DNA of 64,000 nucleotides from an uncultured Gemmatimonadaceae bacterium (GTDB lineage Bacteria > Gemmatimonadota > Gemmatimonadetes > Gemmatimonadales > Gemmatimonadaceae). The first letter of the stretch is position 1. Every line of letters starts with the position of its first letter. The notes under the pieces were generated by a model. The model made no database searches. It was not told the origin of the DNA and was given only the letters and a program-made list of their open reading frames with translations. Both the position numbers and the translations under genes were made by a program. Below are positions 5,551 to 63,693 of the stretch, in pieces. Location: NCBI GenBank assembly GCA_963781585.1, contig CAWAGQ010000006.1, forward strand, positions 384,001 through 448,000. Direction: 5' to 3'.

Positions 5551-5556
5551 ATCGGT

Positions 5557-30501: not shown

Positions 30502-30507
30502 TTGCCC

Positions 30508-30668: not shown

Positions 30669-30763
30669 GCCCTCATGCGACTCTCGCCGCAGTCGCGCGG
30701 CGCCCGCCGCGCGCACTGAAGAGCGCCGACTACGGCACCAGCTGCCTGGGGCGCCGGTCCCTG

Positions 30764-31117
30764 TCACCGAATGAAATAACCAGAGACGCGCCAGGTGCCG
30801 TCAACGTCGCGCATCGGTGTGACCGTCTCGACGGCGGAGCGTTTGTGTTCAAACTGCGTGTCGAACTGGAAGACAACGTACTCCCCGTCAGGAGCGCCCG
30901 GGAGCTCGGTCGCTGGGCGCGCTTCCCTGAGCGTGCGCACCACCAGTGCTCCGAGGGGTTCGCGTGCGGCGGCGAGGGAACGGGCCCACTGGGTCTCCGG
31001 GACGGCCCGCCGAAAGAGCGAGGCGGCAGCCTCCCACGTGCCGGCCGCATCGGCGGCGTCGGCCCGGGCGAGCCAGTCACGCGCGGCCTGCTCGGCCTCA
31101 GGATCGTATTCAGCCAT
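30764..31117 (-). CDS. DUF4019-family protein
   Basis: AARDWLARAD, REPLG, LPGAPDGEYVVFQFDTQF, ETVTPM, WRVSGYFIR. Confidence 0.88.
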   Translation of the reverse strand: MAEYDPEAEQAARDWLARADAADAAGTWEAAASLFRRAVPETQWARSLAAAREPLGALVVRTLREARPATELPGAPDGEYVVFQFDTQFEHKRSAVETVTPMRDVDGTWRVSGYFIR

Positions 31118-31327
31118 TGCTGTCTCCGCTCTTCACATGTGAAGCGGGGGGCCCGCGCCCGCCACCTCACCTCACTACGGCAGATCCCTTCTCGTGGCCA
31201 TTGCCTTCGCGATCAGCGCGCCGTGGACACGCACCTCGACATCGGTGAGCGCGTCAGCCACGATGCCTTCCTTCGACGGCGGTGGATCATGTCCGGAGTG
31301 GAATCGCGCGTCGGGCCCGTCAGCCGG

Positions 31328-33166: not shown

Positions 33167-33228
33167 GTTCTCCACCTCAGGCGATAAGGAGTTGAAAGGG
33201 AAAACTGCGGATCGCAACAAGCAGCGCC

Positions 33229-34404
33229 TCACCGCAGCAGGTCGAGCGCCGCCTCCTGCATCCGCCGCTGCGCTTCGGTTGCCGGGGTCGCGGTGTTGGT
33301 CGTGTTGAATACCGCGATCACCGAGAGCGTGCTCACCGGATCGAAGTAGTAGAACGACCGGAAGCCGGCCTGGCTTCCGGTATGGCCCAGAATGCGGTGG
33401 CCGTCGCGGTCGAGCACGAAGAACGCGAGCCCCATCCACTGGTGCGGTGCGGCCTCGTAGCTCTGCGACATCGGCTTCCCGGGTCGCCACATCTCCTCGA
33501 GACTCGACCGCGAGAGCACCACGTCGTACCGGGCCCGGGACATCCCTGGCAGGACGGCCCCGGTCAGGAAGGCCGTATACTTCACCAGATCGTTCACCGG
33601 TGCGTTCCAGGCGCCGTTAGGCGATGTGATCCCCGGATCGAAGTCGGCGCCGTTGTCCACCACCTGCGGCCGGCCCGCCGAATCCTTCCGGACGTAGTAG
33701 TTGTGTGACCGCTGGCCGGCCAGAAAATACGGCGTGCCGCGAAAATAGCTGCGGCTGAGGTCGAGCGGGGCAAAGATGTTCTTCTGGACGTACGCATCCC
33801 ACGGGTCGCCGGTGATCTGCTCGATGACGCGTGCCAGATAGATGAAGGCAGGGTTCGAATAGCTGTACCGGGATCCCGGCGGGAAGAGCAGTTCCTGGTA
33901 CGGCATCATGGCCACGAGCTGGTTCCAGGTCGTGGGCTCGAACGGTTCCCACGGCTTGCCATTGCCCCACGGCCAGGTGGGATTCTGGAATCCCGCGGTG
34001 TGCGACAGCAGCATGCGGATGGTGATGCTGTCGATCATGTTGTAGGGGTCGTGAATCTGCCGCAGCTCCGGCACCCAGCGCACGATCCGGTCGTCGAGCG
34101 AGAGCTTCCCGCGATCGCGAAGCTGCATGATCGAGATCGCAGTGAGCGACTTGGTGATCGAACCCCAGTGGAAGATCGTCTGGGAGTCGACGGCCGCGTG
34201 TGTCGCGCGGTCCGCGTCGCCGGTGTCGTAGCGGCCGATGACACGGCCGTTTTTCATGAGGACCACGCTGGCGCCCACCACCCTGTCGCTGTCGACGTAG
34301 GCCTGGAAGGTGTGCGTGAACGCGGCCCAGGTCGGCGGGGCCTGCGCGATGCCGATGGCGGGTGCGAGCGCGGCGAGCGCGGCGGCGCGATGGAGGGAGG
34401 TCAT
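33229..34404 (-). CDS. Secreted serine hydrolase, beta-lactamase family
   Basis: Signal peptide, GSITKS, LLSHTAG, YSYSN, GHTG. Confidence 0.93.
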   Translation of the reverse strand: MTSLHRAAALAALAPAIGIAQAPPTWAAFTHTFQAYVDSDRVVGASVVLMKNGRVIGRYDTGDADRATHAAVDSQTIFHWGSITKSLTAISIMQLRDRGKLSLDDRIVRWVPELRQIHDPYNMIDSITIRMLLSHTAGFQNPTWPWGNGKPWEPFEPTTWNQLVAMMPYQELLFPPGSRYSYSNPAFIYLARVIEQITGDPWDAYVQKNIFAPLDLSRSYFRGTPYFLAGQRSHNYYVRKDSAGRPQVVDNGADFDPGITSPNGAWNAPVNDLVKYTAFLTGAVLPGMSRARYDVVLSRSSLEEMWRPGKPMSQSYEAAPHQWMGLAFFVLDRDGHRILGHTGSQAGFRSFYYFDPVSTLSVIAVFNTTNTATPATEAQRRMQEAALDLLR

Positions 34405-42808: not shown

Positions 42809-43141
42809 GTGAGCCAGAGCAAGACCGATCTCCTGCAGGGCACGCTCGATCTCATCGTCCTCCGAATGCTCCGTGGACAGTCCGCGAACGGATGGGAGCT
42901 GACGCAATCCATCCAGGCCGTCACCAAAGGCGTTCTTGACATCAATTACGGGTCCATCTACCCTGCGCTCCGGCGTCTCGAGGCTCGTGGACTCGTCAAA
43001 GGCCGTTGGGCCACGTCCGAGAACAACCGGCGTGCGCGATTCTACGAGCTCACCGCGTCCGGCCGGAAGCAGCTCGAAACGGAGCGGCAGTCGTGGGAGC
43101 GCTTCGCGCATGCCCTCGGCCTCATCCTCGACCAGACCTGA
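42809..43141 (+). CDS. PadR-family transcriptional regulator #2
   Basis: DLLQGTLDLIVL, GSIYPALRRLE, SENNRRARFYELT. Confidence 0.95.
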   Translation: MSQSKTDLLQGTLDLIVLRMLRGQSANGWELTQSIQAVTKGVLDINYGSIYPALRRLEARGLVKGRWATSENNRRARFYELTASGRKQLETERQSWERFAHALGLILDQT

Positions 43142-43146
43142 CGATC

Positions 43147-45795
43147 GTGCTGCGGGAGTTCGCCGCCCGCGCGCGGGCATTCCTGGCCCGGCGCCAGCGC
43201 GAAGCGGAGCTGCACCTGGAGCTGCAGGACCACCTGGAGCGGGAGATCGCGCGCAACCTCGACCGCGGTCTTCCGCCTGACGAGGCTCGCCGTGCCGCGC
43301 ACCTCGCCATCGGCAACCTGACGATCCATCACGAGGACGGTCGCGTCGCGACGACGGGCGTCTGGTTCGAGCAACTCTCGCAGGACGTCCGGTACGCCTC
43401 GCGCATGCTCCGCCGGAACCCGGCCTTCGCGCTCGTCGCCATCCTCTCGCTCGGCTTCGGCATCGGCGCCACGACGACGATGTTCAGCACGATCGACGCT
43501 CTCGACTTCCGCCCACTCCCGTTCCACGACCCGGATCGCCTCGTGTGGCTGGCCGAGGTGGCGCCGCCGACCGACGACATCTGCCCGGGATGCGGATCGC
43601 GAACGTCGCCGCCGACGGCGATCGACTGGCTCGCTCAGGCCCGATCGTACGCCGCTGTCGGAGTCATGTCGGAGTCGGCCGCTCCGTGGGTCCACGACGA
43701 CGCGATCGAGCTGCTCTCCGTGAACCAGGTCACGCCGGGGTTCTTCCGGCTCCTCGGGGTCGCGCTCGAGGTCGGTCGCGACTTCCTGCCTGGCGACACG
43801 CTGCCCGGCGCTCCCCCGGTCGTCGTCGCGACGCACGGCTTCTGGCGACAACGGCTCGCCGGCGAGGTGGCGGCCGTCGGGCGTCCCCTGCCGTCCTCCC
43901 TCGATGCGGGAACGGACGCGAGGCTCCGCGGCGCAATCGTCGTCGGCGTGCTGCCGGAAACCTTCCGCTTCGAATTGTCGCGTGATCGCCAGCTCTGGAC
44001 GCCGCTCCGGCTGCCGGCGACGTCGCCACGCACAGCGCGTTCGGTGACGGTGATCGCGCGCCTTCGGCCCGACGCGAGCATCCCCGCGGCCAACGCCGAG
44101 TTGCAGGTGCTGTTCGCGCGACTCGTCTCCACGTATCCATCACCGTACCAGTCGTGGGGCGCGCGCGTCGAGCCGCTGCGGGCGCGACTCGGCTGGGGCG
44201 CCGGCGGCAACCGCGGGCTGCTGCTCGGCATCACCGCGCTGGTGCTGCTCATTGCCGTCATGAATGTCGCGGGCCTGCTGGCGGGGCGCGCGTCGATGCG
44301 ACGACAGGAGTTCGCCATGCGGAGTGCATTCGGCGCGAATCGGCGACGGCTGCTCCGCCAGCTCCTCGTCGAGGGAACGAGCGTCGGGCTTGGCGGCGGA
44401 CTGGTTGGCGCGCTGATCGCGCTGTGGGGCATCCGCTTTTCGGCGCGGTGGTTCGGCATCGACAGCGGCGTCGCGATCATGGACCTTCGAGTCCTGGCGT
44501 TCGCGCTCGTGCTGTCGATCAGCGTCGGGATCGTCACGGCGTTCGGTCCCGCATTCCGCATCTCCCGGGTCGACCTGATCGGCGACCTCCGGGGCAAGGC
44601 TACGGCCTCGACTGACCGCCAAACCGGCATGGCATCGAGCGTGCTGATCATCACGCAGATCGCGGTCGGCCTCGTGCTCCTCACCGCTGCCGCCTCGCTG
44701 AGTGCCGACTTCCTGACGCTGCGATACACCGATCTCGGGTTCGACCCGTCGGGCCTCTATGAGACGTCCCTCTCCGGTCCGCGGCCGGCCGGTGGCGATG
44801 CCACTCCGTGGCGCGACGTGGCGGAGGCCGCGCGTGAGCGCGTCGCGTCCATCCCGGGGGTGCGCGCGGCGACGCTCCGCTACATTTCGGCGATGCACCC
44901 CGAAATCGTGCGCCCTGCCGCTGGCGGCGGCGTCGCGTCGGGGACGCCGGTGCTGACCGCGATCGACCCGGCGTATTTCGAGACCTGGGGGATGCGGCTC
45001 CGGCGCGGTCGCGCGTTCGGCCCCGGCGACGGCGCGGGCGCGGCGCGGGTTGCGATCGTCAACCGATCCGCCGCGGCCCGGTTCTGGCCGGGTCAGGACC
45101 CGCTGGGCCTCGTGGTCTTTGTCGGGGACAGCGGGGCACCAGGTGAATTGCTCACCGTGATCGGCGTGAGCGAGGACGCGGAGCGTCTCGAGATGGCGGA
45201 CCGTCACTGGTCGGTGGTCTACCGGCCGCTCGCGCAGGCGACGCTGTGGCACACCGCCGCGGTGCTCCAGGTCCGCATCGACGGTCGGGCCGATCGCGCG
45301 GCGCTGCTCGCGCTCGCGCAGTCACGCGTCCGGGAGGTCCTGCAGCGGCCCATCGATCCGTTCCGTTCGGTCGAGGCCCAGCTCGACGAGCGCCTGCGGC
45401 CGCGCCGGTTGAACGCCATCGCGCTCGACCTGTTCGCGGCATTCGGGCTCGCGCTCGCGGCGATGGGGATATACGGTGCGATCGCCGCTGCCGTGACACG
45501 GCGGACCCGCGAGATCGGTGTGCGCATTGCGTTAGGCGCAGCGCCCGGCGGAGTGTTGCGCCTTGTCGTCCGGCGCGGGCTCGCGCTGGCGGTGACCGGC
45601 GTGGCACTCGGATTGCTCGGCGCCGCCGCGATGTCGCACGTTCTGCGCTCCCTCGTCATCGGCACCGACGTCCTCGACCCGCGGGTGTTCGCGGCCGCGG
45701 CCGCGGTGATGATCCTGACGGCCGTGTCCGCCGCGTTGCTGCCGGCGCGTCGCGTGCTGCGCGTGGATCCCGTGGATGCGTTGCGCGCGGACTGA
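43147..45795 (+). CDS. Duplicated orphan ABC permease #2
   Basis: ELHLELQDHLE prefix, LGFGIGATTTMF, RRTREIGVRIALGA, VDPVDALRAD. In-frame GTG 6 nt after the padR stop. Confidence 0.92.
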   Translation: MLREFAARARAFLARRQREAELHLELQDHLEREIARNLDRGLPPDEARRAAHLAIGNLTIHHEDGRVATTGVWFEQLSQDVRYASRMLRRNPAFALVAILSLGFGIGATTTMFSTIDALDFRPLPFHDPDRLVWLAEVAPPTDDICPGCGSRTSPPTAIDWLAQARSYAAVGVMSESAAPWVHDDAIELLSVNQVTPGFFRLLGVALEVGRDFLPGDTLPGAPPVVVATHGFWRQRLAGEVAAVGRPLPSSLDAGTDARLRGAIVVGVLPETFRFELSRDRQLWTPLRLPATSPRTARSVTVIARLRPDASIPAANAELQVLFARLVSTYPSPYQSWGARVEPLRARLGWGAGGNRGLLLGITALVLLIAVMNVAGLLAGRASMRRQEFAMRSAFGANRRRLLRQLLVEGTSVGLGGGLVGALIALWGIRFSARWFGIDSGVAIMDLRVLAFALVLSISVGIVTAFGPAFRISRVDLIGDLRGKATASTDRQTGMASSVLIITQIAVGLVLLTAAASLSADFLTLRYTDLGFDPSGLYETSLSGPRPAGGDATPWRDVAEAARERVASIPGVRAATLRYISAMHPEIVRPAAGGGVASGTPVLTAIDPAYFETWGMRLRRGRAFGPGDGAGAARVAIVNRSAAARFWPGQDPLGLVVFVGDSGAPGELLTVIGVSEDAERLEMADRHWSVVYRPLAQATLWHTAAVLQVRIDGRADRAALLALAQSRVREVLQRPIDPFRSVEAQLDERLRPRRLNAIALDLFAAFGLALAAMGIYGAIAAAVTRRTREIGVRIALGAAPGGVLRLVVRRGLALAVTGVALGLLGAAAMSHVLRSLVIGTDVLDPRVFAAAAAVMILTAVSAALLPARRVLRVDPVDALRAD

Positions 45796-50102: not shown

Positions 50103-50143
50103 AAGATCTCAATAAGTGAGTGGTCGACACGTCCGGAGGCCGT

Positions 50144-50476
50144 ATGGGCACGGGATCCACCGACATCATTCGGGGCACCGCCGACATGCTGATCCTCCGG
50201 CTGCTCGCCATCCAGCCGATGCACGGCTATGGCATCGCGAAGTACGTCGAGCAACGGTCGAAGGAGGCGATCCGCATCCAGCCTGGCGCGCTGTACGCGT
50301 CGTTGAACCGACTCACCCGGCAAGGATGGATCCGGTCGTCGTGGAAGACCACGGACAACGGTCAGCGCGCCCGCTACTACACGCTGACGGCCGCCGGGTC
50401 GCGGCGCCTGGCCGAGGAGACCGCCAGCTGGCACCGGCTCGCGCGTGGCGTCGCCCTGATCCTCTCCGCCGATTAG
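50144..50476 (+). CDS. PadR-family transcriptional regulator #3
   Basis: GGAGG RBS. IIRGTADMLIL, MHGYGI, GALYASLNRL, RARYYTLT. Confidence 0.94.
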   Translation: MGTGSTDIIRGTADMLILRLLAIQPMHGYGIAKYVEQRSKEAIRIQPGALYASLNRLTRQGWIRSSWKTTDNGQRARYYTLTAAGSRRLAEETASWHRLARGVALILSAD

Positions 50477-50486
50477 AGGAGGATTC

Positions 50487-53123
50487 ATGTGGCGATTCCT
50501 GGGCGACCTCGCCTTCCGGGCCCGCGCGATCTTCCGTCGCGCCGAAGCCGACCGGGAGCTGCGGGACGAGTTCGCACATCACCGCGCCATGCTGGTCGCC
50601 GAGCTGCGTGCGGCGGGCGCGGCGGCCGCGGACGCCGAGCGCGAGGCGGCACGGCGCATGGGAGGTGAGGCCGGCCAGCGCGAAACGGCGAGGGACGGGT
50701 GGGGCGTGTCGCCCGTGACCGAGTTCGTCGCCGACGTGCATTACGCACTCCGGCAGATGCGCCGGCAGCCGAGGTTCACCGCGATCGTGGTCCTGACCGT
50801 CGGACTCGGCATCGGCGCCACCGTCGCTCTCTCGAGCGTCGCCGACGCGGTCATCCTGCGCGCACTCCCGTACGCGAACGAGGATCGCATCCACGTCTTC
50901 TGGTCGGACTACAACTGGCGGGGCGACGAGTACGAGTTCCTGCGCGACCGGAAGGGCGTTTTCTCGGACCTCGCGGCCTTCTCGACCAACGACGATCCGT
51001 ACGTGGTGGACCCGCGGGCCTCGACTGGTGCCCGTCTTCTCCCGTTCGTCGTCACCACGCCGACGCTCTTCGACGTCCTCGGCGTGCGGCCGGAACTCGG
51101 GCCGGCAATGACTCCGGACGACGACCGCCCGCACGCGCCCCCGGTGATCGTCATCAGCCACGCGATGTGGCAGGACGATCTGGGTGGCGACCCGAACGTT
51201 ATCGGCCGGCCGATCTTCATCAGCGGGACGCCGGTCACGATCGTCGGCGTCATGCCGAAGGGGTTCTATTTTCCGACGCCAGAGTACCGGGCGTGGCGGC
51301 CCCTTCAGATCGACCCGGCGGGCCCGATGTACAGCGTGGGGTATCTGGTGCTGGTCGGCCGCACGCCCGCCGGGACGCCGCAGGTCCGGGTGGACGCCGA
51401 CGTCCGGCGCATGGCGCACGATCTCGGCCGGCGCTTCACGTACACGAAGTCATGGGACAAGACGCAGGACGCGCGCGTCACGACCGTGCATACGTACCTC
51501 CTCGGCGACGTCCGCAATCCCATCCTCCTCCTCCTGGCGGCCGTCGCGTTGCTCCTCGCGATCGCGTCGGCGAATGCCGCCGCGCTCGTCCTGGCGCGAA
51601 CCAGCGACCGGAGCCAGGAGATGGCGGTGCGAACGGCGATGGGCGCGGGCAGCTGGCGCCTCGTCAGGCAGGTCGGCGCCGAATCGCTCGTGCTCTCGCT
51701 CGCGGCGGCATGCATCGGCGCCGGCGTGGCCGAGGCCGGGTTCCGCTTGCTCGTGGCGCGGCTGCCGCTCGGGAACGGCGCAGGCGCGACGGTCACGCCG
51801 GGCCTCGCGGTGCCGGCAATCGCGTTCGCGCTGGCACTCGTGATCGCGTGCGCGATCTCGATCGCCCCGGCGCGTGGGCTGCTCAAGCGACGATTCGACC
51901 TCGCGCTTTCCCGCGAGCGGAGCGAAACCGGGCTGCGCCGCGGTGTGCGGCACGTCCATACCGCGATCATCGCGGGCCAGGTCACGCTCGCCATCATGCT
52001 TGCCGTGGGCGCCACGTTGCTCATCCGCTCGGTCGATCGCATCCGCGCGCTCGATCCAGGGTTCAACGCGCACGGCGTCGCCACGTTCACGCTCGTGACG
52101 CGCAGCGACGTCCCGAGCGAGGCAACGACGCAGTTCCTGCGCGAGGTCATCTCCCGCACCGCCGCCCTGCCCGGCGTCACCGCGGTGGGCATGACCAACC
52201 GGCTCCCGGTGCGCGACGGAGGATACCAGAGCGTCGTGACGGTCGAGGGGCGTCCCGATCTCGAGGGGGCGAACCGGCCGAACGCACTCTATCGAATCGT
52301 CTCGACAGGGTTTTTCCGCGCGATGGGAATGCGGATCGTCGAAGGCCGCGGGGTCGACTCGACCGACCTCGCGAACACGGTACCGGTCACGGTCGTGAGC
52401 GAGTCGTTTGCGCGTGCCATGTGGCCCGGGCAGAGCGCCATCGGGAGGCATGTTACGACGGGCTGGACCGGCACCATGGTGTCACGCGAGGTCGTGGGCG
52501 TGGCCCGCGAAACACGGATGACGAGCATGACCGGGGAGATCCCATTCGTGATGTTCGTACCGTTCGCGCAGTCCAACGGGCGACCCGGGAGTGTGCTGGT
52601 GGTGCGCGCGACGGGACCGGTTACCACGGTCATTCCCGCGGTGCGAATGGTCGTCGCCGAGCTCGATCCACTCGTCGCGGTCACGAACGTCGGGTCCATG
52701 GAGGACGTCGTGTCGACCGCCCTCGCCCAGCCGCTCCGGCTGCGGTTCTTCCTGGGCGTGTTCGCCGCGCTCGCGATTCTCCTCTCGGCCGTCGGCGTGT
52801 ACGGAACCGTGCGCTACGCGGTGGCGCGACGCCGCGCCGAGTTCGGGATCCAGATGGCGCTCGGCGCGTCGCCAGCGCGCGTGCTCTCGGGCGTGGTGCG
52901 GCAGGCGCTCACGCCGGTCGTGCTCGGCGCGCTCGCCGGCCTTGGCGGCACACTGCTCCTGTCGCGCGCGCTGCGCGCGTTCGTGTACGGCGTGGCGCCG
53001 ACCGATGCGACGAGCCTCGTCGTTGCGACGGGATCGCTGCTGGGGACCGCGATCGTGGCGGCACTGGTGCCGGCGCTCCAGGCGAGTCGTACAAGTCCCG
53101 CCGAGTCGCTGCGCGCGCAGTAG
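50487..53123 (+). CDS. Duplicated orphan ABC permease #3
   Basis: ADRELRDEFAHH prefix, GLGIGAT, RRRAEFGIQMALGA, PAESLRAQ. Confidence 0.92.
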   Translation: MWRFLGDLAFRARAIFRRAEADRELRDEFAHHRAMLVAELRAAGAAAADAEREAARRMGGEAGQRETARDGWGVSPVTEFVADVHYALRQMRRQPRFTAIVVLTVGLGIGATVALSSVADAVILRALPYANEDRIHVFWSDYNWRGDEYEFLRDRKGVFSDLAAFSTNDDPYVVDPRASTGARLLPFVVTTPTLFDVLGVRPELGPAMTPDDDRPHAPPVIVISHAMWQDDLGGDPNVIGRPIFISGTPVTIVGVMPKGFYFPTPEYRAWRPLQIDPAGPMYSVGYLVLVGRTPAGTPQVRVDADVRRMAHDLGRRFTYTKSWDKTQDARVTTVHTYLLGDVRNPILLLLAAVALLLAIASANAAALVLARTSDRSQEMAVRTAMGAGSWRLVRQVGAESLVLSLAAACIGAGVAEAGFRLLVARLPLGNGAGATVTPGLAVPAIAFALALVIACAISIAPARGLLKRRFDLALSRERSETGLRRGVRHVHTAIIAGQVTLAIMLAVGATLLIRSVDRIRALDPGFNAHGVATFTLVTRSDVPSEATTQFLREVISRTAALPGVTAVGMTNRLPVRDGGYQSVVTVEGRPDLEGANRPNALYRIVSTGFFRAMGMRIVEGRGVDSTDLANTVPVTVVSESFARAMWPGQSAIGRHVTTGWTGTMVSREVVGVARETRMTSMTGEIPFVMFVPFAQSNGRPGSVLVVRATGPVTTVIPAVRMVVAELDPLVAVTNVGSMEDVVSTALAQPLRLRFFLGVFAALAILLSAVGVYGTVRYAVARRRAEFGIQMALGASPARVLSGVVRQALTPVVLGALAGLGGTLLLSRALRAFVYGVAPTDATSLVVATGSLLGTAIVAALVPALQASRTSPAESLRAQ

Positions 53124-55360: not shown

Positions 55361-55445
55361 CGACGAGGATGAGCGGGGCGCGATCGTAACATGGCGGCGA
55401 TGGAACCGTCCACTTCAGCCACCGATGATTCGCGCGCCCAATGAA

Positions 55446-55477
55446 CGCGCCGCACAGTCCAGAGACCGTGCGGCGCG
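55446..55477 (-). terminator. Hairpin between convergent genes (likely terminator of the TonB-receptor operon)
   Basis: CGCGCCGCAC...GTGCGGCGCG perfect outer arms; TTCATT follows on the minus strand. Confidence 0.6.
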
Positions 55478-55492
55478 CGGTGCATCCGTCGG

Positions 55493-58400
55493 TCAGAAGT
55501 AGTACTTCAGTCCGACCTGCGCCTGGAACTGGAGCAGCAGGTTGGTCCCCGTGATCCCCAGCGATCCGAAGGTCGTGGGCACGCTGTAGAGGATCTTCCC
55601 GCTCGCCGCGTCGAAGCTGTTCGGCGTCAGCAGGTCGCGGCTCGCACCGAAGACGCCCATGTAGCGCCCCCACTTGCTGTTCAAGCCATTCAGCACGTTG
55701 AACAGGTTCACCTGAAGCTCGGCGCGCTGCGCCCCCGTCGTGGTGATGGATTTCGCGAGCTGGATGTCCATCCGGTTGAACCAGGGGAGGGTGCACGTGT
55801 TTCGCTGGATGATCTGCCCCACGTACTTCCCGACGCACGGGTAGGCCTTGAGGTAGCCCGCATAACGATCGCGGATCGCCTGCGCTTTCGTCGGGTCCGT
55901 CTCCGTCAGCGGGAGGTCCGTGGGCGCGAAGATGAACGGCCGGTCATTGAAGTTCGCGCCGTCGCCGTTCAGGTCGCCGCCCTGCTCGGGTCCCCACCGG
56001 TTCCCCGACTGGAAGCGCCAGAGCCCGCTCACGCGGATGTCCCACGGCAGCTGCGCGTTGCCCGAGATGACGATGACGTGGTTACGCACCGTCGCCGACG
56101 GTCCCCACGCCTTGTCGGTCGCGCCGACGCCGCCGATGTCGTTCGGCCCGTACGCACCGACCGTCGGATTGGTGAAGCCTTCCTTCGCCGTGCAGCAGGA
56201 ATAGGATGAGTTGTCATACGCCCGCGTGTACGTGTATGACACCCGCACCTGCGAGCCGCCACGGAAGATGCGCGTCAGTTCCGCCGTGCCCGCCAACGAC
56301 TGCGACTGGCCGTCGTTGTAGTTGGCGTAGATCTGGGCGAAATCGATGTTGAGCTCCGCATTCGGTGCCGTCGACGTCGCACTCGACGGGTTGAACACCG
56401 CCGCGGGCACGAAGACCTGCCGGTTCCCCTCGTTCGTCAGCGCGAACTGCGCGGGGCGCAGGTTCAGGTTGCGCACCGTGTACAGGCGGTACGAGCGCGA
56501 CCCCACGATGTCGACCGAGAGCTTGGTGTTCCCCGCGAAAAGGCGGTCATACCCGATGTTCGCCTTGAAGCTCTCGGGATACTGGAAGTTGTCCTTCCAG
56601 AAGGTGTACGTCGGCACCCCGGTTCCTGTCTGCCCGCCGGCGCAGGTGACCGGGTCGTTTTCCCCACCGGTGCTCCAGGAGGAGAACCCCGACACCGACG
56701 GCGGCGCGTCCGGGGCTCCGGTCGCGCTCGACCCGGCGCACGTGAGGCTCAGCACCGGGTGCACCGAGCTCGTCACGTTCCCGCCCACCACGTAAGGCAG
56801 CCGGCCGTAGAAGTACCCCATGCCGAAGCGCGCCACCGACCGCCCGTCGCCGTTCACGTCGTACGCCAGCGCGAGCCGCGGCGAGACGTTGTTCTTGTCG
56901 GTCGGCGCGTTGCCGGATTTCACGCCGAACGCGCGCTCGGCGTCGATCACCCGCTGCGGATTGTTGAGGAACGACTCGACGTCGTAGCGGACGCCGAGCG
57001 TCGCCGTGAGCTTCGGCGTCGGGCGCCACTCGTCCTGTGCGTAGACGGCGTACTCGCCGACGTTGAACTTCGAGAGTGGCACCGTGCCATCGATCGTCTC
57101 GCTGCGCGTGAAGGACGACGGCTTCCTGGCCGCGAAGTCGGCCAGCGACGCGAAGGTGTACGCGCCCGTCGTGTTGTCGATCGATCCGGTCGGCCCGATG
57201 AACGAGTTCTTGAGGTGCGAGTAGATGCCGCTCCCCCCGAACTTGAACGTGTGCCGCCCGGCCTCGAGCGTGAAGTTGTCGATCAGCTGGAGCTTCCGCT
57301 CCAGCAGGTCGTTGTTCAGCGAGACGAACGTGCCGCCGTAGCCGGCGCTCTGGCCGCCGCCGATGTTCGTCACGAACAGCGAGGGCCGCAGGTCGTGCCC
57401 GTTGCGCGGCCGGTCCTCGTCGGAGAACTGGAAGCGGAGCACGTTGAACGACCTCGCCCCCGTCACCGACTGGAGCTCGCCCACCAGCGACGACGACCGG
57501 TCGCCCAGGTTCTCCGCGCGCGCCTGCCCGTACGAGAAGTCGAAGCTCGGACTGAACAGGTTGTCGTTGTGGTGGTTCGCGTAGTTCTCCCGCAGCGAGA
57601 AGCGGTTGTTGCGATCGAGGTTCCAGTCGAGGCGGCCGAACAGCGTGATCACGTCGTTGGTCGTCTGGAAGTTGGAGTACTTCGCGGCCGCGTCGCCGAC
57701 GCCGTAGGTGCTCTGGAGGATGTCGATGAACTGTTGCAGGTTGTGTGCGCCCTCGGTATCCGGCGCCGGGTTGCCGTTGGCGTCCAGCTTGGAGAGGAAG
57801 TAGTCCGGGCGCAGCGGCAGCTGCGGTTCCCGGCGCCGCTGGCCGTCGAGCGAGACGAGGAAGAACGCCTTGTCACGCTTGATCGGCCCCGAGTAGCGGG
57901 CCGCGTATTGCGCCGAGCTGAAGTCGATCGCGGGCTTGCCGGCGAAGTCCTTCGCCGCGAACTGATTGCCGCTGTAGTTCGCGTACGCAGTCCCCTCAAA
58001 CGCGTTCGTGCCGCCGCGAGTCACCACGTTGACCACGCCGCCCGTGTAGTTCCCGTACTCGACGTCGAAACCATTGGTGATGATCTGGAACTCGCGGATC
58101 GATTCCAGCGAAAACTCGAACGGGATGCGCGAGCCGCCGCGGTTCTCGCCGAAGAAGGAGTTGTTGGCGTCGACGCCGTCGATCTGGACGTTGGTCTGCG
58201 ACGGACGCAGCCCGGCGATCGAGAACTGGCCACCGGTCGTCTTCTCGGGATTCGGGTCGACGAGGCCGGACAGGTTGATGAAGTCCGTGAAGTCACGGCC
58301 AAGCGACGGCAGCGTCTCGATCTCCTTCTGCGACACGCTCTGTGCCACCGAGGCATCGGTGACGTCGATCTCCGGCCGCGCATTCGCCTGCACCTGCACC

Positions 58401-58774
58401 CCCTGCAGCGCGACGGCCTGCTGCGCCATCGCGAAGTTCACCGTCGCCGTCTGCCCCACGATGACCGTGATGTTGCGCTGCGAATCCGCGGCGAACCCGA
58501 TCATCCGCGCCTGGACCGTGTACGTCCCCGGCGGCAGCAGAACGAGGGTGTACTGCCCGTCGCCGTTGGAGTGCGCGGAACGTTCGAAGCCCGTGTTGAT
58601 GTTGCGACCCGTGATCGTCGCATTCTCCAGCGGCGCGCCGCCCGGCCCCGTGATGAGCCCACGGATCGCGCCGGTCGTCGTGGCGTTCTGCGCCCCGACC
58701 GGGGCCGCGGCCAGCAGGGTCGCGACCATCAGCGCGGCCAGGCCGCCCATCGGCTGCCGGCTCGTCATGGACAT
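55493..58774 (-). CDS. TonB-dependent receptor, Oar-like, with an N-terminal carboxypeptidase-regulatory-like domain
   Basis: GGAGG before ATG 58774, signal peptide, LPPGTYTV, LPSLGRDF, IDGVDAN, GGVVNVVTRGGTN, C-terminal QVGLKYYF. Confidence 0.93.
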   Translation of the reverse strand: MSMTSRQPMGGLAALMVATLLAAAPVGAQNATTTGAIRGLITGPGGAPLENATITGRNINTGFERSAHSNGDGQYTLVLLPPGTYTVQARMIGFAADSQRNITVIVGQTATVNFAMAQQAVALQGVQVQANARPEIDVTDASVAQSVSQKEIETLPSLGRDFTDFINLSGLVDPNPEKTTGGQFSIAGLRPSQTNVQIDGVDANNSFFGENRGGSRIPFEFSLESIREFQIITNGFDVEYGNYTGGVVNVVTRGGTNAFEGTAYANYSGNQFAAKDFAGKPAIDFSSAQYAARYSGPIKRDKAFFLVSLDGQRRREPQLPLRPDYFLSKLDANGNPAPDTEGAHNLQQFIDILQSTYGVGDAAAKYSNFQTTNDVITLFGRLDWNLDRNNRFSLRENYANHHNDNLFSPSFDFSYGQARAENLGDRSSSLVGELQSVTGARSFNVLRFQFSDEDRPRNGHDLRPSLFVTNIGGGQSAGYGGTFVSLNNDLLERKLQLIDNFTLEAGRHTFKFGGSGIYSHLKNSFIGPTGSIDNTTGAYTFASLADFAARKPSSFTRSETIDGTVPLSKFNVGEYAVYAQDEWRPTPKLTATLGVRYDVESFLNNPQRVIDAERAFGVKSGNAPTDKNNVSPRLALAYDVNGDGRSVARFGMGYFYGRLPYVVGGNVTSSVHPVLSLTCAGSSATGAPDAPPSVSGFSSWSTGGENDPVTCAGGQTGTGVPTYTFWKDNFQYPESFKANIGYDRLFAGNTKLSVDIVGSRSYRLYTVRNLNLRPAQFALTNEGNRQVFVPAAVFNPSSATSTAPNAELNIDFAQIYANYNDGQSQSLAGTAELTRIFRGGSQVRVSYTYTRAYDNSSYSCCTAKEGFTNPTVGAYGPNDIGGVGATDKAWGPSATVRNHVIVISGNAQLPWDIRVSGLWRFQSGNRWGPEQGGDLNGDGANFNDRPFIFAPTDLPLTETDPTKAQAIRDRYAGYLKAYPCVGKYVGQIIQRNTCTLPWFNRMDIQLAKSITTTGAQRAELQVNLFNVLNGLNSKWGRYMGVFGASRDLLTPNSFDAASGKILYSVPTTFGSLGITGTNLLLQFQAQVGLKYYF

Positions 58775-59817
58775 GCCACCTCCGTCGCCTCGCTCAGCGA
58801 GCGCGGGAACAGCTCGACGGGCGGGTTCGTGAACGCTTTCAGGATGCCGGTCCAGTCGTAGCACTTCCCGGCGGTGAAGGTCGTCTTGAGCGTGGTCGTG
58901 TCGGCCACCACGTGACTGTCGAAGCGCACCGCCACGGCACCGCTGCCGTCGTCGACCACCGCGTTGCGGCCGCCGCCCGTCGTGAAGACGTCGAGCAGCT
59001 TGCCGGCCTTGATCCGGATCAGCCGCCCCTGGAGGTTCGCGTGAATGTCGCTTCCCGCGTCCGCCGCGTCCTTGGACGTGACGTCCGCCGGCGCGAGCGG
59101 CGTGCCGGACTGGACCGAGTTGACCGTCACCGGGCTCAGCTCGAACTCGTTGTTGAACGCCGCCAGCGTCGCCGACACCTCGATCACGTCGCCGATCTGG
59201 AACGACGGTCCGGTCGGGCTGAACAGCTCGACGCCACCCGTCTCGTCCTCGATGTACGCCTGCCCCGTCGAGATCTGGTTCACCGTCGACGTCACCGTGC
59301 CGCGCACCGTGATGCGCGCGCCGAGCGACTGTTGCTCGGCGGCGGCAATGGTGATCACGCATCCCGTGCGCCCATCGAGCGTCACGAACTGCGTCTCCGA
59401 GATATAGATGCTGACCGACTTCGGGTTCTCGCAGAACGACACCACCGAGCCCATGCCGGTGGTGTCGACCCTGAGCCAGTGGGTGCCCGCAGGGAGGTCG
59501 GAGACGTCGAAGCGGCCGTCCACGCCGGAGTGGACGTCGCCACCCGCGAGTGCCGCCGACGTCCCGCGCACCTGCACGATCAGGTGCACGTTCGCCATGG
59601 CGCTGTCGCCCGCCGACGGATCGTAGAGACCGTTCTGGTCACGGTCCAGGAAGACGATCCCGTCCAGGCCACCGGTGCCGCTCACCGTGAACGGGCGCGC
59701 CGGCTTGATCGAGCACCCGGATGCGGTGCCCAGCGCCGCGAGCGCGATGCACGTCAGGATCAGCGGCCCGCGCCTCGCGCGCGACGGTCCGGATCCGGAG
59801 AGAGTCTGGTACCTCAT
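58765..59817 (-). CDS. Lipoprotein: SdrD-B-like domain plus one paired OB-fold-like module
   Basis: Lipobox ASGC, VFLDRDQNGLYD, AYIEDETGGV...GDVIEV...FNNEFEL...LQGRLI...ELFPRS. Overlaps both neighbours. Confidence 0.8.
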   Translation of the reverse strand: MRYQTLSGSGPSRARRGPLILTCIALAALGTASGCSIKPARPFTVSGTGGLDGIVFLDRDQNGLYDPSAGDSAMANVHLIVQVRGTSAALAGGDVHSGVDGRFDVSDLPAGTHWLRVDTTGMGSVVSFCENPKSVSIYISETQFVTLDGRTGCVITIAAAEQQSLGARITVRGTVTSTVNQISTGQAYIEDETGGVELFSPTGPSFQIGDVIEVSATLAAFNNEFELSPVTVNSVQSGTPLAPADVTSKDAADAGSDIHANLQGRLIRIKAGKLLDVFTTGGGRNAVVDDGSGAVAVRFDSHVVADTTTLKTTFTAGKCYDWTGILKAFTNPPVELFPRSLSEATEVACP

Positions 59818-62312
59818 TTCTGCACCACGTCCGATGCACCTCTCGGCTTGAGTTCCGCGGCGCTTGGCGTGCCGAACGGCACCGCGATACCGGTGATGTC
59901 GTAATGCGTCCCCACGGTGAACAGCGACGCCGGCGGCGGGACGTGCCCCGTCGGCGCCGACATGAAGACCGTGAACGACGAGGCGTCAGGCGCCGTGACG
60001 GTGACGCTGTATGTCCCGCTCCCGCTGGGCGTGCCCACCGTGTTGACCGTCACGTCCCGAATCGTCACCAGCTGGCCTTCGTACGTTCGTGCGAGGAATT
60101 CCGCGCCCGTCACTACGCGCGGAGCCGGCGGCGCCCCGGATCCGAGCTTCGTCACCTTGATCGAATCGGTCGGCGTGATGTTGTTCGTGATCTCCTTCTC
60201 GTTGCTGAACGTCGTCATCTTGCCGTGGACCCGCACGGCGTCACCCGCCATGAGGCCGAGCGCGGCCGGCAGGTTGAAGATCAGCACGCCCCCCGTCGCA
60301 TCCTGGATGTACGAGTTGTCCGTGCGGAACGTCCCCTGTCCCGCCGTCACGATCCCTTCCACCGTGACGGTGTCGTTGTTGACCGCGCGCGCCGCCGCGA
60401 TCGTCACCAGGTTCGGGTTGGTGGAGACCACGTCCGCCGGCGAGCGCGGCTTCACTTCGGGCGTGAACGTCGTGCCGTTGGTCGAGAAGTTGAGCGCCGC
60501 GCCCGAGACGTCGTACGTCATCCCGACCTGCCAGAACGTGTTCGTGATCCCGACCGCGGCGTTGTCGATGCGAACCGTCAGATCGGTGCCGTCGGGGGCC
60601 GTCGCGAGGACGTTGTACGCGCCGCTCCCGCTTGGCGTGCCGACGCTGTTGACCACCAGGCCGGAGAGCCGCACGAACTGCCCGTCGTAGATCCTCGACG
60701 CGAGGTCAGGCCCCGTGACCGTGCGCGGCGACGGCGGGGTCGTCGTGCCGAGCCTCTCGATCAACGGCGGCGTCGAGGCGTTGAAGCGCGCGATCTCGTA
60801 CTCGTTGTTGAAGAACGAGACGACGCCGGTGACGCGGATACTGTCTCCCGGCACAAGTACCGTCGCGGTCGGGATGTTGAAGATATCGGCGCCGCCTGTC
60901 GGGTCGACGATATAGGCGCTCAGGTTCGTCGCCGTCGAGAGCTGGTAGACGCCGGTGCCGGCGTACACCACCCCCTCGACCGTCACCGTGTCGCCGGCGG
61001 CGTGCGTGCGCGCCTGCGCGATCGGGATCGCGACCGTGCCGACGGCCACGTCGGCGCTCGAGCGCGGCTTGAGCTGCGCCGTGCCGTTGAAGACGCCGTC
61101 GAGTCCCGTGACGTTGTACGCGTGCCCGACCTGCCAATACGAGATCGGGATGTCGATGTTGTTGGTGTTGCCGTTCCGGACCTGGAACCCCTCGGAGGCA
61201 TTCTGGCCCTGCAGGTTCACGTTATACGACGTGGCGCCGGTGGTGGCCGAGCTCAGGACCGTCGCCCCCTGAACGCTCACGAGCTGCCCCGCGAACGCTC
61301 CCGAAACGAGGTCGGCGATCGAGATCGGCTTGGCATCGGGAACCGGGCCGCTGCCGAGCTTCGTCACGCTCAGGGTTCCGCCGGAGGGCGCGACCACTTC
61401 GAGCTCGCCGTTGAAGACCGACGTGACGCCGATGACGCGCACCGTATCACCGGCCACGGTCCCGATCACCTGCGCGCCGAAGACCACGATGCCCGCCGTC
61501 TGGTCCTGAACGTAGAGGTTGTTGAAGCTCAGGAATCCGCCGTTGGACGTAGCCACGGCGACGAACGCGACGGTCGTGCCGACCGCGCTCGCACGCGACT
61601 CGGCCACCGTGGTAAGCAGGTTCCCCGTGAACTGCACCGCGACCGACTGCGTCGCGTTGGCGCCGACGGTTACGGTCCGCACCGTGCCGCCGACGATATC
61701 AATGGTCGGAATCGGCGTGATCACGACCGTATAGGTCCCCGGTCTCAATGTTGCGAACGTGAACTCGCCGCCGCTGCCCGTCGCCGTCGTCGCCTGAGGC
61801 TCCTGGGTCGTGTCGGAGGTGGCAAACAGCCGGACCGTCATGCCGGGCGCCGGGGTGTCGACGCCTGCGTCGTAGGTGCTGTTCGCGTTGTTGTCGCGGA
61901 ACAGCAACCCGCTGATGGTGCCGGGCTCGTACACATAGCGGAATTCCGAGCTGACCACGCCACCGCGGAAGGGAACCACGACTACCGGTGTCGGAGCACT
62001 CGCCAGCAACGCGCCAGCCGGTGCGGTGGCGGACAGGGCGGCACTGTAGCTCCCAGGGTCGACGTCGTCGAAGGTGGCGCTCCCGTCGCTGCCGAGCGTG
62101 GCCTGTCGAGCCGAACCGCCACCGACGGGGGTGAGGGTTACCTGGCCGCTGATCGCGAGGTCGCCGGTCGAGTAGGCGCCGGAGCCGTCGACATCGACGT
62201 ACGCGCGCACGGAGACCGTGACGGCCGTGCCGGTTGGAATCTTGTTATCATTGCAGCCGAACATGATGAGTGCGGCCACCGCGACGATGGCCGGTCGAGC
62301 CCTGCGACGCAT
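59814..62312 (-). CDS. Lipoprotein: two SdrD-B-like domains plus three tandem paired OB-fold-like modules
   Basis: GGAG RBS, lipobox MFGC, YVDVDGSG and FRDNNANSTYD. Three ~200-aa repeats Y(V/I).D.T.G...GD.(V/I)RV.G...F....E...GQ.V...KPR..DV. Confidence 0.85.
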   Translation of the reverse strand: MRRRARPAIVAVAALIMFGCNDNKIPTGTAVTVSVRAYVDVDGSGAYSTGDLAISGQVTLTPVGGGSARQATLGSDGSATFDDVDPGSYSAALSATAPAGALLASAPTPVVVVPFRGGVVSSEFRYVYEPGTISGLLFRDNNANSTYDAGVDTPAPGMTVRLFATSDTTQEPQATTATGSGGEFTFATLRPGTYTVVITPIPTIDIVGGTVRTVTVGANATQSVAVQFTGNLLTTVAESRASAVGTTVAFVAVATSNGGFLSFNNLYVQDQTAGIVVFGAQVIGTVAGDTVRVIGVTSVFNGELEVVAPSGGTLSVTKLGSGPVPDAKPISIADLVSGAFAGQLVSVQGATVLSSATTGATSYNVNLQGQNASEGFQVRNGNTNNIDIPISYWQVGHAYNVTGLDGVFNGTAQLKPRSSADVAVGTVAIPIAQARTHAAGDTVTVEGVVYAGTGVYQLSTATNLSAYIVDPTGGADIFNIPTATVLVPGDSIRVTGVVSFFNNEYEIARFNASTPPLIERLGTTTPPSPRTVTGPDLASRIYDGQFVRLSGLVVNSVGTPSGSGAYNVLATAPDGTDLTVRIDNAAVGITNTFWQVGMTYDVSGAALNFSTNGTTFTPEVKPRSPADVVSTNPNLVTIAAARAVNNDTVTVEGIVTAGQGTFRTDNSYIQDATGGVLIFNLPAALGLMAGDAVRVHGKMTTFSNEKEITNNITPTDSIKVTKLGSGAPPAPRVVTGAEFLARTYEGQLVTIRDVTVNTVGTPSGSGTYSVTVTAPDASSFTVFMSAPTGHVPPPASLFTVGTHYDITGIAVPFGTPSAAELKPRGASDVVQK

Positions 62313-62472
62313 CACGGCTCCTGCCTTGCGGATCATGGACGGGTTGCGAATCGAAGTCTTTCGGGCGAACGCGAGCCTAGATCCCACGGCAATGACTGTC
62401 AAGATGTCACCGCCGGGCGACCGCATCGTTCCCCGTTCGTTACCACGCGGATAAACCGAGGCTGAAGGCAAG

Positions 62473-63693
62473 GTGACGCTCCGTCAGTCCGTCACATTCG
62501 CGCTGCTGGTCGCCTTCGGCGTGTCCGCCTGCTCGCCCGGCGACAAGGCCACCGGCCCCCTGACCGCGCCCGTCATTTCGATTGCGGGTGTCACCGAGGG
62601 CGCGACCTACTCGGTTCCTGTGACGATTCACATCGATACCGACGTGGGATCGTGGGAGGCTACGCTCGACGGACAGCCGTTCACGTCTGGCGGTACCGTG
62701 CAGACCCCCGGGGACCACACGCTGTCGGTGACGGCGCACCTCTCGCTCGCCGTCGCAACTGTCGTCGTGCACTTCAGGATCCAGCCTCCAGCGGGCGGGG
62801 AACTGATCATCCGGATGTTCGACCTTGGGCCGAATGAGTTCGGCGGGGGTGGGGACGCCATCCTGATCACCGACTCCACCTCGGCGGGCATGGTGAGCGC
62901 CATGGTGGATGCCGGGCCGGCGGGCGCCGATGCGAGTGATCCCGGCTTGGTCTCGCGCCAGCTCGCGCAGCTCCACATCGACACGCTCGCGATCCTGCTG
63001 CTCACCCACGCCCACGGCGACCACTATGGCGGCATGGGGCCGATTCTCTCGAGCGTGCACGTGAAGCGGTTCCTGTACAACGGACAGATTCGCAGCCTGT
63101 CGTCCTACACGAGCGTGATCTCCCAGGCCGGCCTCGTCGCCGACAGCACCATCGTCGTCACGGCGACGCGCGACTACGACCTGGGATACGCGGCAACTCC
63201 CTCACACCTGAAAGTCCTCCCGCCGCTCGCGACGCACCTGGCCGAGGACACCGACGATGGCACTCTGCTGAACGACGGCTCGGTGGGGGCGCGTCTCTCA
63301 CTCGGCACGTTCTCGATGTTCCTCACCGGAGACAGCGAGGTCGCCGCGACGGAGCGCTGGCGCGCACAGTTCACGAGCCTCGTCCAGAACATCACCGTGC
63401 TGAAGGTCGGCCACCATGGTGCGAACAACGCCATCTTCGACAACGGCGTGAGCGGGACGTCGTCCTGGCTCGCGGTGACCGCACCGCGGGTGTCGATCAT
63501 CTCGGGGAACGGCACCACCCATCCGCGTATCAACGCGCTCAACAAGCTCCTGGGACAGCCCGGAAACCGGACGTACTGCACCAACGTGCACGGGAACATC
63601 ACAATCCGCGTGGCGCGCGATGGCAGTTACCGTGTGAGCGTGGCGAAGAACGCCGACCAGGACTGCGTGCCGGGGAGCGACGCGACGACCTGA
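62473..63693 (+). CDS. ComEC/Rec2-type metallo-beta-lactamase-fold lipoprotein (putative nuclease)
   Basis: Lipobox VSAC, Ig-like domain, GDAILI, VDAG, THAHGDH, LTGDSE, LKVGHHG, HP, T..HGNITI. No ComEC membrane domain. Confidence 0.87.
   Translation: MTLRQSVTFALLVAFGVSACSPGDKATGPLTAPVISIAGVTEGATYSVPVTIHIDTDVGSWEATLDGQPFTSGGTVQTPGDHTLSVTAHLSLAVATVVVHFRIQPPAGGELIIRMFDLGPNEFGGGGDAILITDSTSAGMVSAMVDAGPAGADASDPGLVSRQLAQLHIDTLAILLLTHAHGDHYGGMGPILSSVHVKRFLYNGQIRSLSSYTSVISQAGLVADSTIVVTATRDYDLGYAATPSHLKVLPPLATHLAEDTDDGTLLNDGSVGARLSLGTFSMFLTGDSEVAATERWRAQFTSLVQNITVLKVGHHGANNAIFDNGVSGTSSWLAVTAPRVSIISGNGTTHPRINALNKLLGQPGNRTYCTNVHGNITIRVARDGSYRVSVAKNADQDCVPGSDATT

Follow-up and report, generated by a model that had tools for sequence, protein, structure and literature searches.

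A four-gene locus of Gemmatimonadota with DUF5689-type lipoproteins, a ComEC-type metallo-beta-lactamase lipoprotein and a TonB-dependent transporter: a candidate system for capture, cleavage and import of extracellular nucleic acid

In Bacteroides thetaiotaomicron, the locus ddbABCDEF is needed for the depletion of exogenous DNA, and the text of that report describes DdbC as a TonB-dependent transporter, DdbD as a DUF5689 protein predicted to form its DNA-binding lid, and DdbA, DdbB and DdbF as nucleases (PMC12478041). The DdbD model was reported to resemble the dsDNA-binding HIN domain of p202 (PDB 4JBM), and DdbC and DdbD to be homologous to RA0C_RS04915, a CarboxypepD_reg barrel, and RA0C_RS04920, a DUF5689 and DUF5017 protein, of Riemerella anatipestifer, both of which are essential for natural transformation (PMC12478041; PMC8459023). 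These two cases, ddb from 2025 and Riemerella competence from 2021, are the TonB-dependent DNA loci with a DUF5689 lid described so far, both in Bacteroidota, and Datasets S1-S3 of PMC12478041 may list ddb-like loci from beyond Bacteroidales; a preprint on the lids of TonB-dependent transporters (10.1101/2023.03.17.533168) mentions neither DUF5689 nor DNA. A further point of reference is ComEC, whose metallo-beta-lactamase (MBL) domain is described as a Mn-dependent endonuclease and 5'-3' exonuclease with an undetectably weak affinity for DNA in vitro, strongly stimulated by a nearby OB fold or other DNA-binding domain (PMC8579336; PMC12455585). Here we describe a four-gene locus in 64,000 nt of DNA from an uncultured Gemmatimonadaceae bacterium (GenBank assembly GCA_963781585.1, contig CAWAGQ010000006.1, positions 384,001 to 448,000), a stretch of about 67% G+C that is called the window below. 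The locus combines two DUF5689-type lipoproteins (A and B), a TonB-dependent transporter (C) and a lipoprotein carrying a ComEC-type MBL domain (D), as listed in Table 1.

We propose that the four proteins serve the outer-membrane capture, cleavage and TonB-dependent import of extracellular nucleic acid, most likely DNA. Drawing on sequence, structural models and analogy with the systems above, we give this reading a probability of about 0.6. The kind of system, a TonB transporter with a DUF5689 binder and a nuclease for DNA, is already known; new here are the phylum, the multi-module binders on Ig-like stalks, the free-standing ComEC-type MBL lipoprotein, the Oar-type barrel and the reverse gene order. 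Our literature searches, which covered papers outside subscription-only access, found none on this locus. The first-pass annotation of the window had suggested a Sus-like system that works without SusD to bind, cut and import nucleic acid. The gene set, the OB folds, the fusions found in other phyla and the likeness of D to ComEC all speak for that suggestion, and from them we infer the binding, cleavage, import and surface exposure that it entails.

The first line of evidence concerns the domains of A and B. In A, Cys20 is followed by two Ig-like domains of SdrD_B/CarboxypepD_reg-like type (residues ~30-234) and by three tandem-OB modules of the DUF5689 type, each about 200 aa long (~235-429, 430-631 and 632-832). 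Pfam matches of A were SdrD_B (E 2.5e-12) and DUF5689 (E 2.4e-11, 44.4 bits against a gathering cut-off of 28.6), the latter covering residues 644-813 and 183 of the 217 profile positions, besides weak OB-fold matches. B has Cys35, one Ig-like domain and a single tandem-OB module of the DUF5689 type (154-346). By BLASTP the C-terminal 200 residues of B resemble both A 429-624 and A 635-831 with 30-32% identity (E ~5e-13), and B 49-343 aligns to A 131-421, which identifies the two at the sequence level as paralogues, A with two Ig-like domains and three modules and B with one of each. The DUF5689 match recurs at E <= 0.001 in 17 of 20 members of the A family and 26 of 41 members of the B family. 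When the B-family profile was compared by hhalign with seven Bacteroidota DUF5689 lipoproteins, taken from TonB-dependent-transporter loci retrieved in our genome scan, the alignment ran through the whole module (99.7%, E 8.9e-26, 178 columns).

The fold of B agrees with this assignment. Its AlphaFold2 model, built from a 41-sequence alignment, has a pLDDT of 90.3 and consists of an Ig-like domain followed by two beta-barrels. Searched against PDB with Foldseek, the barrel pair matched the p204 HINab-dsDNA complex (E 9e-6), POT1 (2e-5 to 1.5e-4), the RPA70 domains DBD-A/B (3.6e-4) and Teb1, and the stalk matched pilin and CnaB domains, so that the best non-pilin matches of B are the DNA binders HIN, POT1 and RPA. 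The expectation that the repeats are OB folds was thus borne out for the B model by a tandem-OB likeness to DNA binders. In PDB, the profile of the A family found Ig-like domains of adhesins and, beyond these, no more than very weak matches to the OB folds of RPA/STN1 (E 0.2-1), and an ESM Atlas search with B returned only its own Gemmatimonadota clusters. Neither A nor B contains a catalytic domain recognised by Pfam or NCBIfam, the matches being Ig-like and OB/DUF5689 only, and Pfam scans that included family members found no DUF5017 in them; A gave a weak match to ExeM_NucH_DNase in its N-terminal part only (E 1.6e-6, 27 bits against a cut-off of 300). To judge by their domains, A and B are binders rather than nucleases. 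The automatic JGI name 'DNA/RNA endonuclease YhcR...', carried by 14 of the 62 A homologues listed, therefore overstates their function.

Two side observations concern the same proteins. The A family comes in two sizes, with three modules in ~830 aa or two modules in ~625 aa (gene A of the window, L009-L011 and P0014-P0058), and module number is evolutionarily labile. From Cys20 onwards A reads C-N-D-N (62244-62252), and the DUF5689 lipoproteins of four Bacteroidota loci (L062, L067, L070, L075) begin with C-N-D-D, C-G-D-D-D or C-E-E-E. Such a start brings to mind the acidic export signal of Bacteroidota lipoproteins.

The second line of evidence concerns D, which consists of Cys20, a beta-sandwich (~35-103), a ComEC-type MBL domain (~110-390) and two invariant cysteines (369 and 398). 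The MBL motifs reported by the first-pass annotation are intact, namely HAHGDH (179-184), GD (286-287), GHHG (313-316) and HP (350-351), and they are invariant in all 48 aligned family members. D has at least 476 homologous matches; the best 120 share 48% identity or more with it and measure about 400 aa. Aligned over 281 aa, D also shows 29% identity to the MBL domain of a ComEC from Gemmatimonadota (E 1e-17). A model of D (pLDDT 90.1) showed the N-terminal beta-sandwich and the MBL domain, and its top Foldseek match was the ComEC MBL domain of Moorella glycerini (9ic4, E 4.9e-17, TMt 0.82), with generic MBLs at 1e-7 or worse. The profile of the D family likewise preferred full-length ComEC (9vc6, 9.7e-14) to the pneumococcal phosphorylcholine esterase Pce (~1e-7), and only ComECs, not Pce, aligned through the C-terminal HP and strand region. 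The proposal that D is a ComEC-type MBL is thereby upheld, the ComEC nuclease domain being its closest relative in both profile and fold.

D itself is not ComEC. Pfam found only MBL matches and no competence channel domain (PF03772), and the match to TIGR00361 ComEC_Rec2 (1.8e-9) reached 36.3 bits under a cut-off of 190; the NCBI name 'ComEC/Rec2 family competence protein' on some homologues hence claims too much. Choline-binding repeats were also absent from the Pfam results for D. Two candidate discriminating features were discarded. Motif II, which reads HxHxDH in D and HxDxDH in Moorella ComEC, does not divide the two groups, as a Gemmatimonadota ComEC (in L005) and the MBL of an Acidobacteriota protein (L048) share HxHxDH, and the invariant Asn N267 is no ComEC-specific motif III, as Pce aligns an Asn there too. 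A complex prediction for D (30-406) with B (44-350), run without controls, gave a score of 0.00, which weighs neither way on binding.

In order to place the locus in its phylum, we used a genome scan with A, from which 80 of 167 confirmed loci were kept, L001-L015 being Gemmatimonadota, and compared the four window proteins with these loci by tblastn; in L009, L012 and L015 fewer than 350 bp precede A, and D was not judged there. B lies directly 3' of A in each of the 13 loci that extend beyond A, in all of which C comes next (a contig end cuts C in L014), and D is divergent upstream of A in 12 of the 12 with upstream DNA. The synteny called for by the earlier proposal is therefore present for the MBL gene as well as for B and C. 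The identity of A falls to 32-33% across the 15 loci, and since the four genes are kept in spite of this, they form an old, conserved unit of the phylum that spans Gemmatimonadales and Longimicrobiales. Database searches with A agree with this distribution: 58 of the 62 matches listed cover at least 72% of its length, and among these 58 all that bear a taxon name are Gemmatimonadota. In one Longimicrobiales locus (L013, 5967-15176), the transporter homologue matches residues 9-523 of C only, and an IS481-type transposase and PilM adjoin D; this copy of the unit may be decaying or rearranged.

The OB module also occurs outside Gemmatimonadota, where its fusion partners are informative. We took 29 of 65 module proteins from other phyla, chosen by a size limit and skipping near-duplicates and proteins already scanned. 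SNase domains were found in three (L016, L025, L069), Metallophos or 5'-nucleotidase domains in three (L016, L018, L069), PLDc_2 in two (L030, L033) and an MBL in one (L048), so that seven of the 29 carry at least one of these catalytic domains. A lamin-tail domain was present in 13, a catalytic or lamin-tail domain in 15, and a glycoside hydrolase or carbohydrate-binding module (CBM) at E <= 1e-7 in none. Firmicutes proteins such as L016, L025 and L069 join the module to SNase, Metallophos and 5_nucleotid_C domains, and the association of the OB module with secreted nucleases, mentioned in the first-pass annotation, was thus recovered in other phyla. The single MBL case is a 2160-aa Acidobacteriota protein (L048, 4108-10590) with an N-terminal signal peptide, a ComEC-type MBL at its start (TIGR00361 3.5e-22; PDB 9ic4 3.4e-20) and, after it, DUF5689-like OB modules, a lamin-tail domain, five Calx-beta domains and NHL repeats. 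Judged by its domains, this protein unites D-like with A/B-like parts in a natural fusion.

Whole loci in two further groups are comparable. Four Bacteroidota loci (L062, L067, L070, L075) have a divergent EEP nuclease (Exo_endo_phos_3, ExeM/NucH-like), a CarboxypepD_reg TonB-dependent transporter and then one or more DUF5689 lipoproteins. Three Eisenbacteria-like loci (L027, 1836-16370; L028; L052) contain a metallophosphoesterase, a stand-alone ComEC-type MBL that is 31% identical to D over 199 aa (TIGR00361 3.1e-23), parts of an ABC importer, a 1025-aa protein with lamin-tail and OB domains and an 825-aa ComEA-like helix-hairpin-helix protein. As a side observation, the latter arrangement looks like another kind of DNA-utilisation locus.

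C has the layout expected of a TonB-dependent transporter, with a type I signal peptide, an N-terminal CarboxypepD_reg domain, a Plug, an Oar-type barrel (PF25183) and a C-terminal Phe; the Pfam matches were OMP_b-brl_4 (1.4e-65), CarboxypepD_reg (1.4e-21) and Plug (6.8e-07). Pfam and NCBIfam gave no SusD or SusC match in the locus, nor any carbohydrate-active enzyme (CAZyme). Since A, B and C overlap, there is no room among them for another gene such as SusD.

The coordinates of the locus are collected in Table 1. The A stop and the B start share an ATGA, and the B stop sits within ATGTCCATGA, which also contains both candidate starts of C, the second possible one being the ATG at 58768; on this sequence evidence, B is translationally coupled to A and to C. 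The starts chosen for A and D match those of full-length homologues, and a conserved ribosome-binding site, AGGAGC, also backs that of A. A, B and D were called lipoproteins by sequence inspection for a signal peptide and Cys, together with the invariance of this Cys across their families (A C20 in 20/20, B C35 in 41/41 and D C20 in 48/48 members). The hairpin past C folds with -34.6 kcal/mol (z = -4.26), and none of 200 shuffles folded equally well; a simple consensus terminator scan passed over it because its U-tail is weak. Transcription of A-B-C probably ends there. The gene map, the overlaps and the folding energy thus agree with the earlier description of three overlapping, coupled genes that end at a hairpin, as does the 160-bp spacer with that of a divergent arrangement with D. 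An Rfam search of the window found no family.

Table 1. Coordinates of the four genes and of associated features in the window
Feature	Position	Strand	Description
Gene A	59814..62312	-	832-aa lipoprotein, ATG start
Gene B	58765..59817	-	350-aa lipoprotein, paralogue of A
Gene C	55493..58774	-	TonB-dependent transporter, ~1093 aa
Gene D	62473..63693	+	406-aa lipoprotein, GTG start, ComEC-type MBL
Hairpin	55445..55478	-	15-bp G+C-rich stem past C stop, then UUCAUU
Divergent spacer	62313..62472		160 bp, A ATG to D GTG
TTGACA	62397-62402	A strand	followed by 17-nt gap and TAGGCT at 62374-62379
AGGAGC	62317-62322	A strand	ribosome-binding site
GT[A/C]ACG motif	62438-62443		nearer D

Across 10 aligned Gemmatimonadota spacers between A and D, a CTTGACA box, the AGGAGC before the A ATG and an invariant GT[A/C]ACG are conserved. 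A strict consensus scan called no promoter in the spacer; from its sequence, we take TTGACA and TAGGCT with their 17-nt gap as a promoter-like pair that would serve A. The GT[A/C]ACG motif or the promoter-like pair may also be a shared operator of the divergent genes, a side observation made where no conserved regulator gene lies nearby.

The surroundings of the unit differ among genomes. On the far side of D, Pfam identified a full-length comEC (Competence and MBL domains) in L005, L007 and L011, and L006 has one by BLAST clustering only. With only about 50% identity between the D of L011 and that of the L005 group, the adjacency of comEC spans a deep split. Adenosine deaminase adjoins the unit in L005, L010 and L011 (Pfam), in L010 together with a CNT nucleoside transporter and a uridine kinase, and L004 has a nucleotide pyrophosphatase/phosphodiesterase near it. 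Across the 15 Gemmatimonadota loci, no conserved CAZyme accompanies the module. The window itself stops 307 bp past D. Elsewhere in it there are two pairs of PadR with a MacB/FtsX-type permease plus a third such permease (2455-5568, 42940-45795 and 50120-53123), and several open reading frames (ORFs) that are supported by codon bias and have no Pfam family (23213-25318 and 29612-33616), including one of 762 aa at 31331-33616 (-).

Taken together, these results suggest the following course of events. A, with three modules on an Ig-like stalk, and B, with one, would bind the polymer at the cell surface, where both would be held by their lipid anchors. D, a lipid-anchored, free-standing ComEC-type MBL with no DNA-binding domain of its own, would cleave the captured polymer, as its fold and motifs suggest, and D with A and B would recreate in trans the pairing of MBL and OB fold known from ComEC. 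Because the ComEC MBL is weak on DNA and stimulated by an OB fold, we propose that D relies on A and B. By analogy with DdbC and DdbD, C would carry the fragments into the periplasm, and B, coupled to C, would be its likeliest lid or partner. The later steps have no genes in the window; they would consist of the action of nucleotidases, of uptake and deamination of nucleosides, or of a transfer to ComEC, and in some related genomes part of the genes concerned adjoin the module. Nutrient scavenging, for phosphorus, nitrogen and nucleobases, is our default assumption about the purpose, and a contribution to natural transformation is possible.

Several observations weigh against this reading. The support for the functions of A to D is comparative, coming from sequence, fold and gene order, and it is from this that we infer binding, cleavage, import, surface placement and the choice of DNA over RNA. 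The Foldseek TM-scores of the OB part of B are low (0.19-0.26), as expected of a multi-domain superposition, and DUF3823 proteins, which have no assigned function, also match its fold (1.5e-4). With a pI of 4.66 and net charges of -20 and -14, A and B are acidic, which is atypical for proteins that bind DNA electrostatically; the DUF5689 lipoproteins of Bacteroidota have a still lower pI (~4.05), so that this value does not set A and B apart from proteins of the DdbD kind, and charge and pI have no discriminating value as a test of DNA binding here. Compared by BLAST with the transporter of a ddb-like Bacteroidota locus (L070), C aligned in the N-terminal domain only (27% over 134 aa, E 7e-6). 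The second structural relative of D is the phosphorylcholine esterase Pce/CbpE (6e-14 to 5e-13, TMt up to 0.68), and the MBL motifs cannot discriminate a nuclease from enzymes with Pce-type substrates. In Balneolaceae (L022, 526-16572, and similarly L058), a 1398-aa protein with DUF5689, CBM_20 and a type IX secretion system (T9SS) tail stands in a starch-like context with a CarboxypepD_reg transporter, two large proteins without a family, LacI and a T9SS alpha-amylase, and in L054 the module protein adjoins pectinesterases; these glycan contexts mean that the DUF5689 module is not exclusive to DNA loci. The flanks of the unit in the window hold PadR, FtsX/MacB permeases and DUF1214 instead of a nucleic-acid gene, eight of the 15 related loci have none of the neighbours named above among 44 flank ORFs selected for a non-exhaustive scan, and comEC, where present, is convergent to D with an FBPase gene between them.

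Some of these points would fit a polymer other than nucleic acid, with D as a Pce-like phosphodiesterase on teichoic acids or on glycans decorated with phosphorylcholine or phosphoglycerol, A and B as OB-fold binders of oligosaccharides, and C as the importer. The structural match to Pce, the best PDB match of D by single sequence (weak, E 0.018), the glycan contexts of DUF5689, the acidity of A and B and the DUF3823 matches all lean this way. D nevertheless prefers ComEC to Pce in structure (4.9e-17 versus 6e-14) and in profile (9.7e-14 versus ~1e-7), shares its C-terminal HP and strand region with ComEC alone and has no choline-binding repeats; none of the 29 fusion proteins has a glycoside hydrolase or CBM partner, 15 are nuclease-associated, and the 15 loci have no conserved CAZyme beside the module. 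We consider such a substrate quite unlikely. Still further down the scale, and very improbable in our view, is a function in remodelling of the biofilm matrix or in adhesion, with A and B as Ig-stalked adhesins on extracellular DNA of the matrix, D trimming it and the transporter linked to the system for some other reason. The N-terminal domains of A and B do resemble the Gram-positive adhesin and pilin domains SdrD_B, CnaB and GBS52, and extracellular nucleases of the ExeM type are reported to act on biofilm DNA (PMC3929857); B and C, however, are translationally coupled, and C follows B in 13/13 loci, which speaks for transport as an integral part of the system.

The alternative that stays closest to nucleic-acid import is uptake dedicated to transformation, in which A and B bind DNA, C passes it, or one strand, to the periplasm and on to ComEC, and D trims it or makes ends. 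In its favour are the requirement for both members of the Riemerella pair in transformation (PMC8459023), the full-length comEC two genes from D in four loci on both sides of the ~50% split in D identity, PilM near D in L013, and the nature of D as a copy of the ComEC nuclease domain. On the other side, comEC is adjacent in just four of the 11 loci with at least 2 kb beyond D and is not co-oriented with the module; its convergent orientation and the intervening FBPase gene mean that it does not belong to the same operon as D. Neighbours such as adenosine deaminase, a nucleoside transporter, uridine kinase and a nucleotide pyrophosphatase suggest catabolism or salvage instead, and our literature searches found no report of competence in Gemmatimonadota. 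We also know of no demonstration anywhere that long DNA passes through a TonB-dependent barrel. A dedicated role in transformation therefore appears unlikely to us. The same holds for a more far-reaching idea, a phylum-wide Gemmatimonadota machine for DNA import, with lipid-anchored D acting in trans with the DUF5689 lipoproteins and the Oar-type barrel, that feeds both ComEC transformation and nucleotide salvage; it is a speculative extension of low probability. If true, it would constitute an outer-membrane DNA route independent of a pilus and outside Bacteroidota, and would give a substrate class to one among the many orphan Oar-type transporters of soil phyla.

Should the capture, cleavage and import of nucleic acid that we favour be correct, the DUF5689-lid DNA system would reach Gemmatimonadota, an abundant and poorly cultured phylum of soil and sludge. 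It would also provide a candidate substrate for one member of the large orphan family of Oar-type transporters, make a large family of free-standing extracytoplasmic ComEC-type MBLs, the matches to D counted above, candidate surface nucleases, and offer natural split (D with A and B) and fused (L048) versions of the OB and MBL pairing recently dissected in ComEC. Finally, it would have implications for how extracellular DNA, which makes up a significant pool of phosphorus in soils and sediments, is turned over.

With regard to known systems, the locus has its OB module in common with secreted nucleases such as YhcR and ExeM/NucH, which have OB and lamin-tail domains; unlike these, A and B carry no catalytic domain of the SNase, EEP or 5'-nucleotidase kind. 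It resembles SusC/SusD loci in bringing together surface lipoproteins, a hydrolase and a TonB-dependent transporter, and differs from them in having no SusD, no SusC-family match and no CAZyme. Pce/CbpE of pneumococci (PDB 2bib, 1wra) belongs to the same MBL sub-clade as D and is its second-best fold match, but it has choline-binding repeats, which D lacks, and matches D more weakly than ComEC does. With ComEC/Rec2, D shares the MBL subfamily fold and the metal-binding motifs of the nuclease domain, and the combination of MBL nuclease and OB-fold binder follows the same principle; in contrast to ComEC/Rec2, D is a 406-aa lipoprotein without the channel (PF03772), and the OB folds, which are DUF5689-type, belong to other polypeptides.

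The closest counterparts are the two Bacteroidota systems. The Riemerella pair, as described, also consists of a CarboxypepD_reg outer-membrane barrel adjoining a DUF5689 protein, and comEC lies near some of the related Gemmatimonadota loci; in contrast to this pair, A and B are without DUF5017, and the window locus adds an MBL nuclease lipoprotein. Like ddb, as presented in its report, the window locus sets a TonB-dependent transporter beside a DUF5689 lipoprotein, includes a secreted or lipoprotein nuclease (predicted for D) and follows the logic of a polysaccharide utilisation locus without SusD. The module of B is homologous to DUF5689 lipoproteins from Bacteroidota loci that are laid out like ddb, these being the sequences compared rather than DdbC and DdbD themselves, and its fold is HIN-like, as reported for DdbD (PMC12478041). 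C agrees with a DdbC-type transporter in its architecture of CarboxypepD_reg, Plug and barrel; its likeness to the ddb-like transporter of L070, which stands in here for the DdbC sequence, is limited to the N-terminal domain, and its barrel is Oar-like (PF25183), whereas the barrels of the Bacteroidota ddb-like loci are PF00593 or match no family. In contrast to ddb, the window locus belongs to Gemmatimonadota, has its lipoprotein genes ahead of the transporter, in reverse order, and encodes two paralogous binders with three and one modules on Ig-like stalks; its sole nuclease candidate is a ComEC-type MBL lipoprotein, where the Bacteroidota ddb-like loci have EEP nucleases. The first-pass annotation had held that the locus is built from different parts than the Bacteroidales systems. 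This is right for the candidate nuclease, which by sequence belongs to the MBL and not to the EEP or other families, and probably for the barrel subfamily; it is wrong for the OB repeats, which are DUF5689 modules as in DdbD and RA0C_RS04920. Collectively, our comparison indicates that the binding part of the window locus is homologous, and not merely analogous, to that of the Bacteroidota loci, in combination with a candidate nuclease of another family and a barrel probably of another subfamily.

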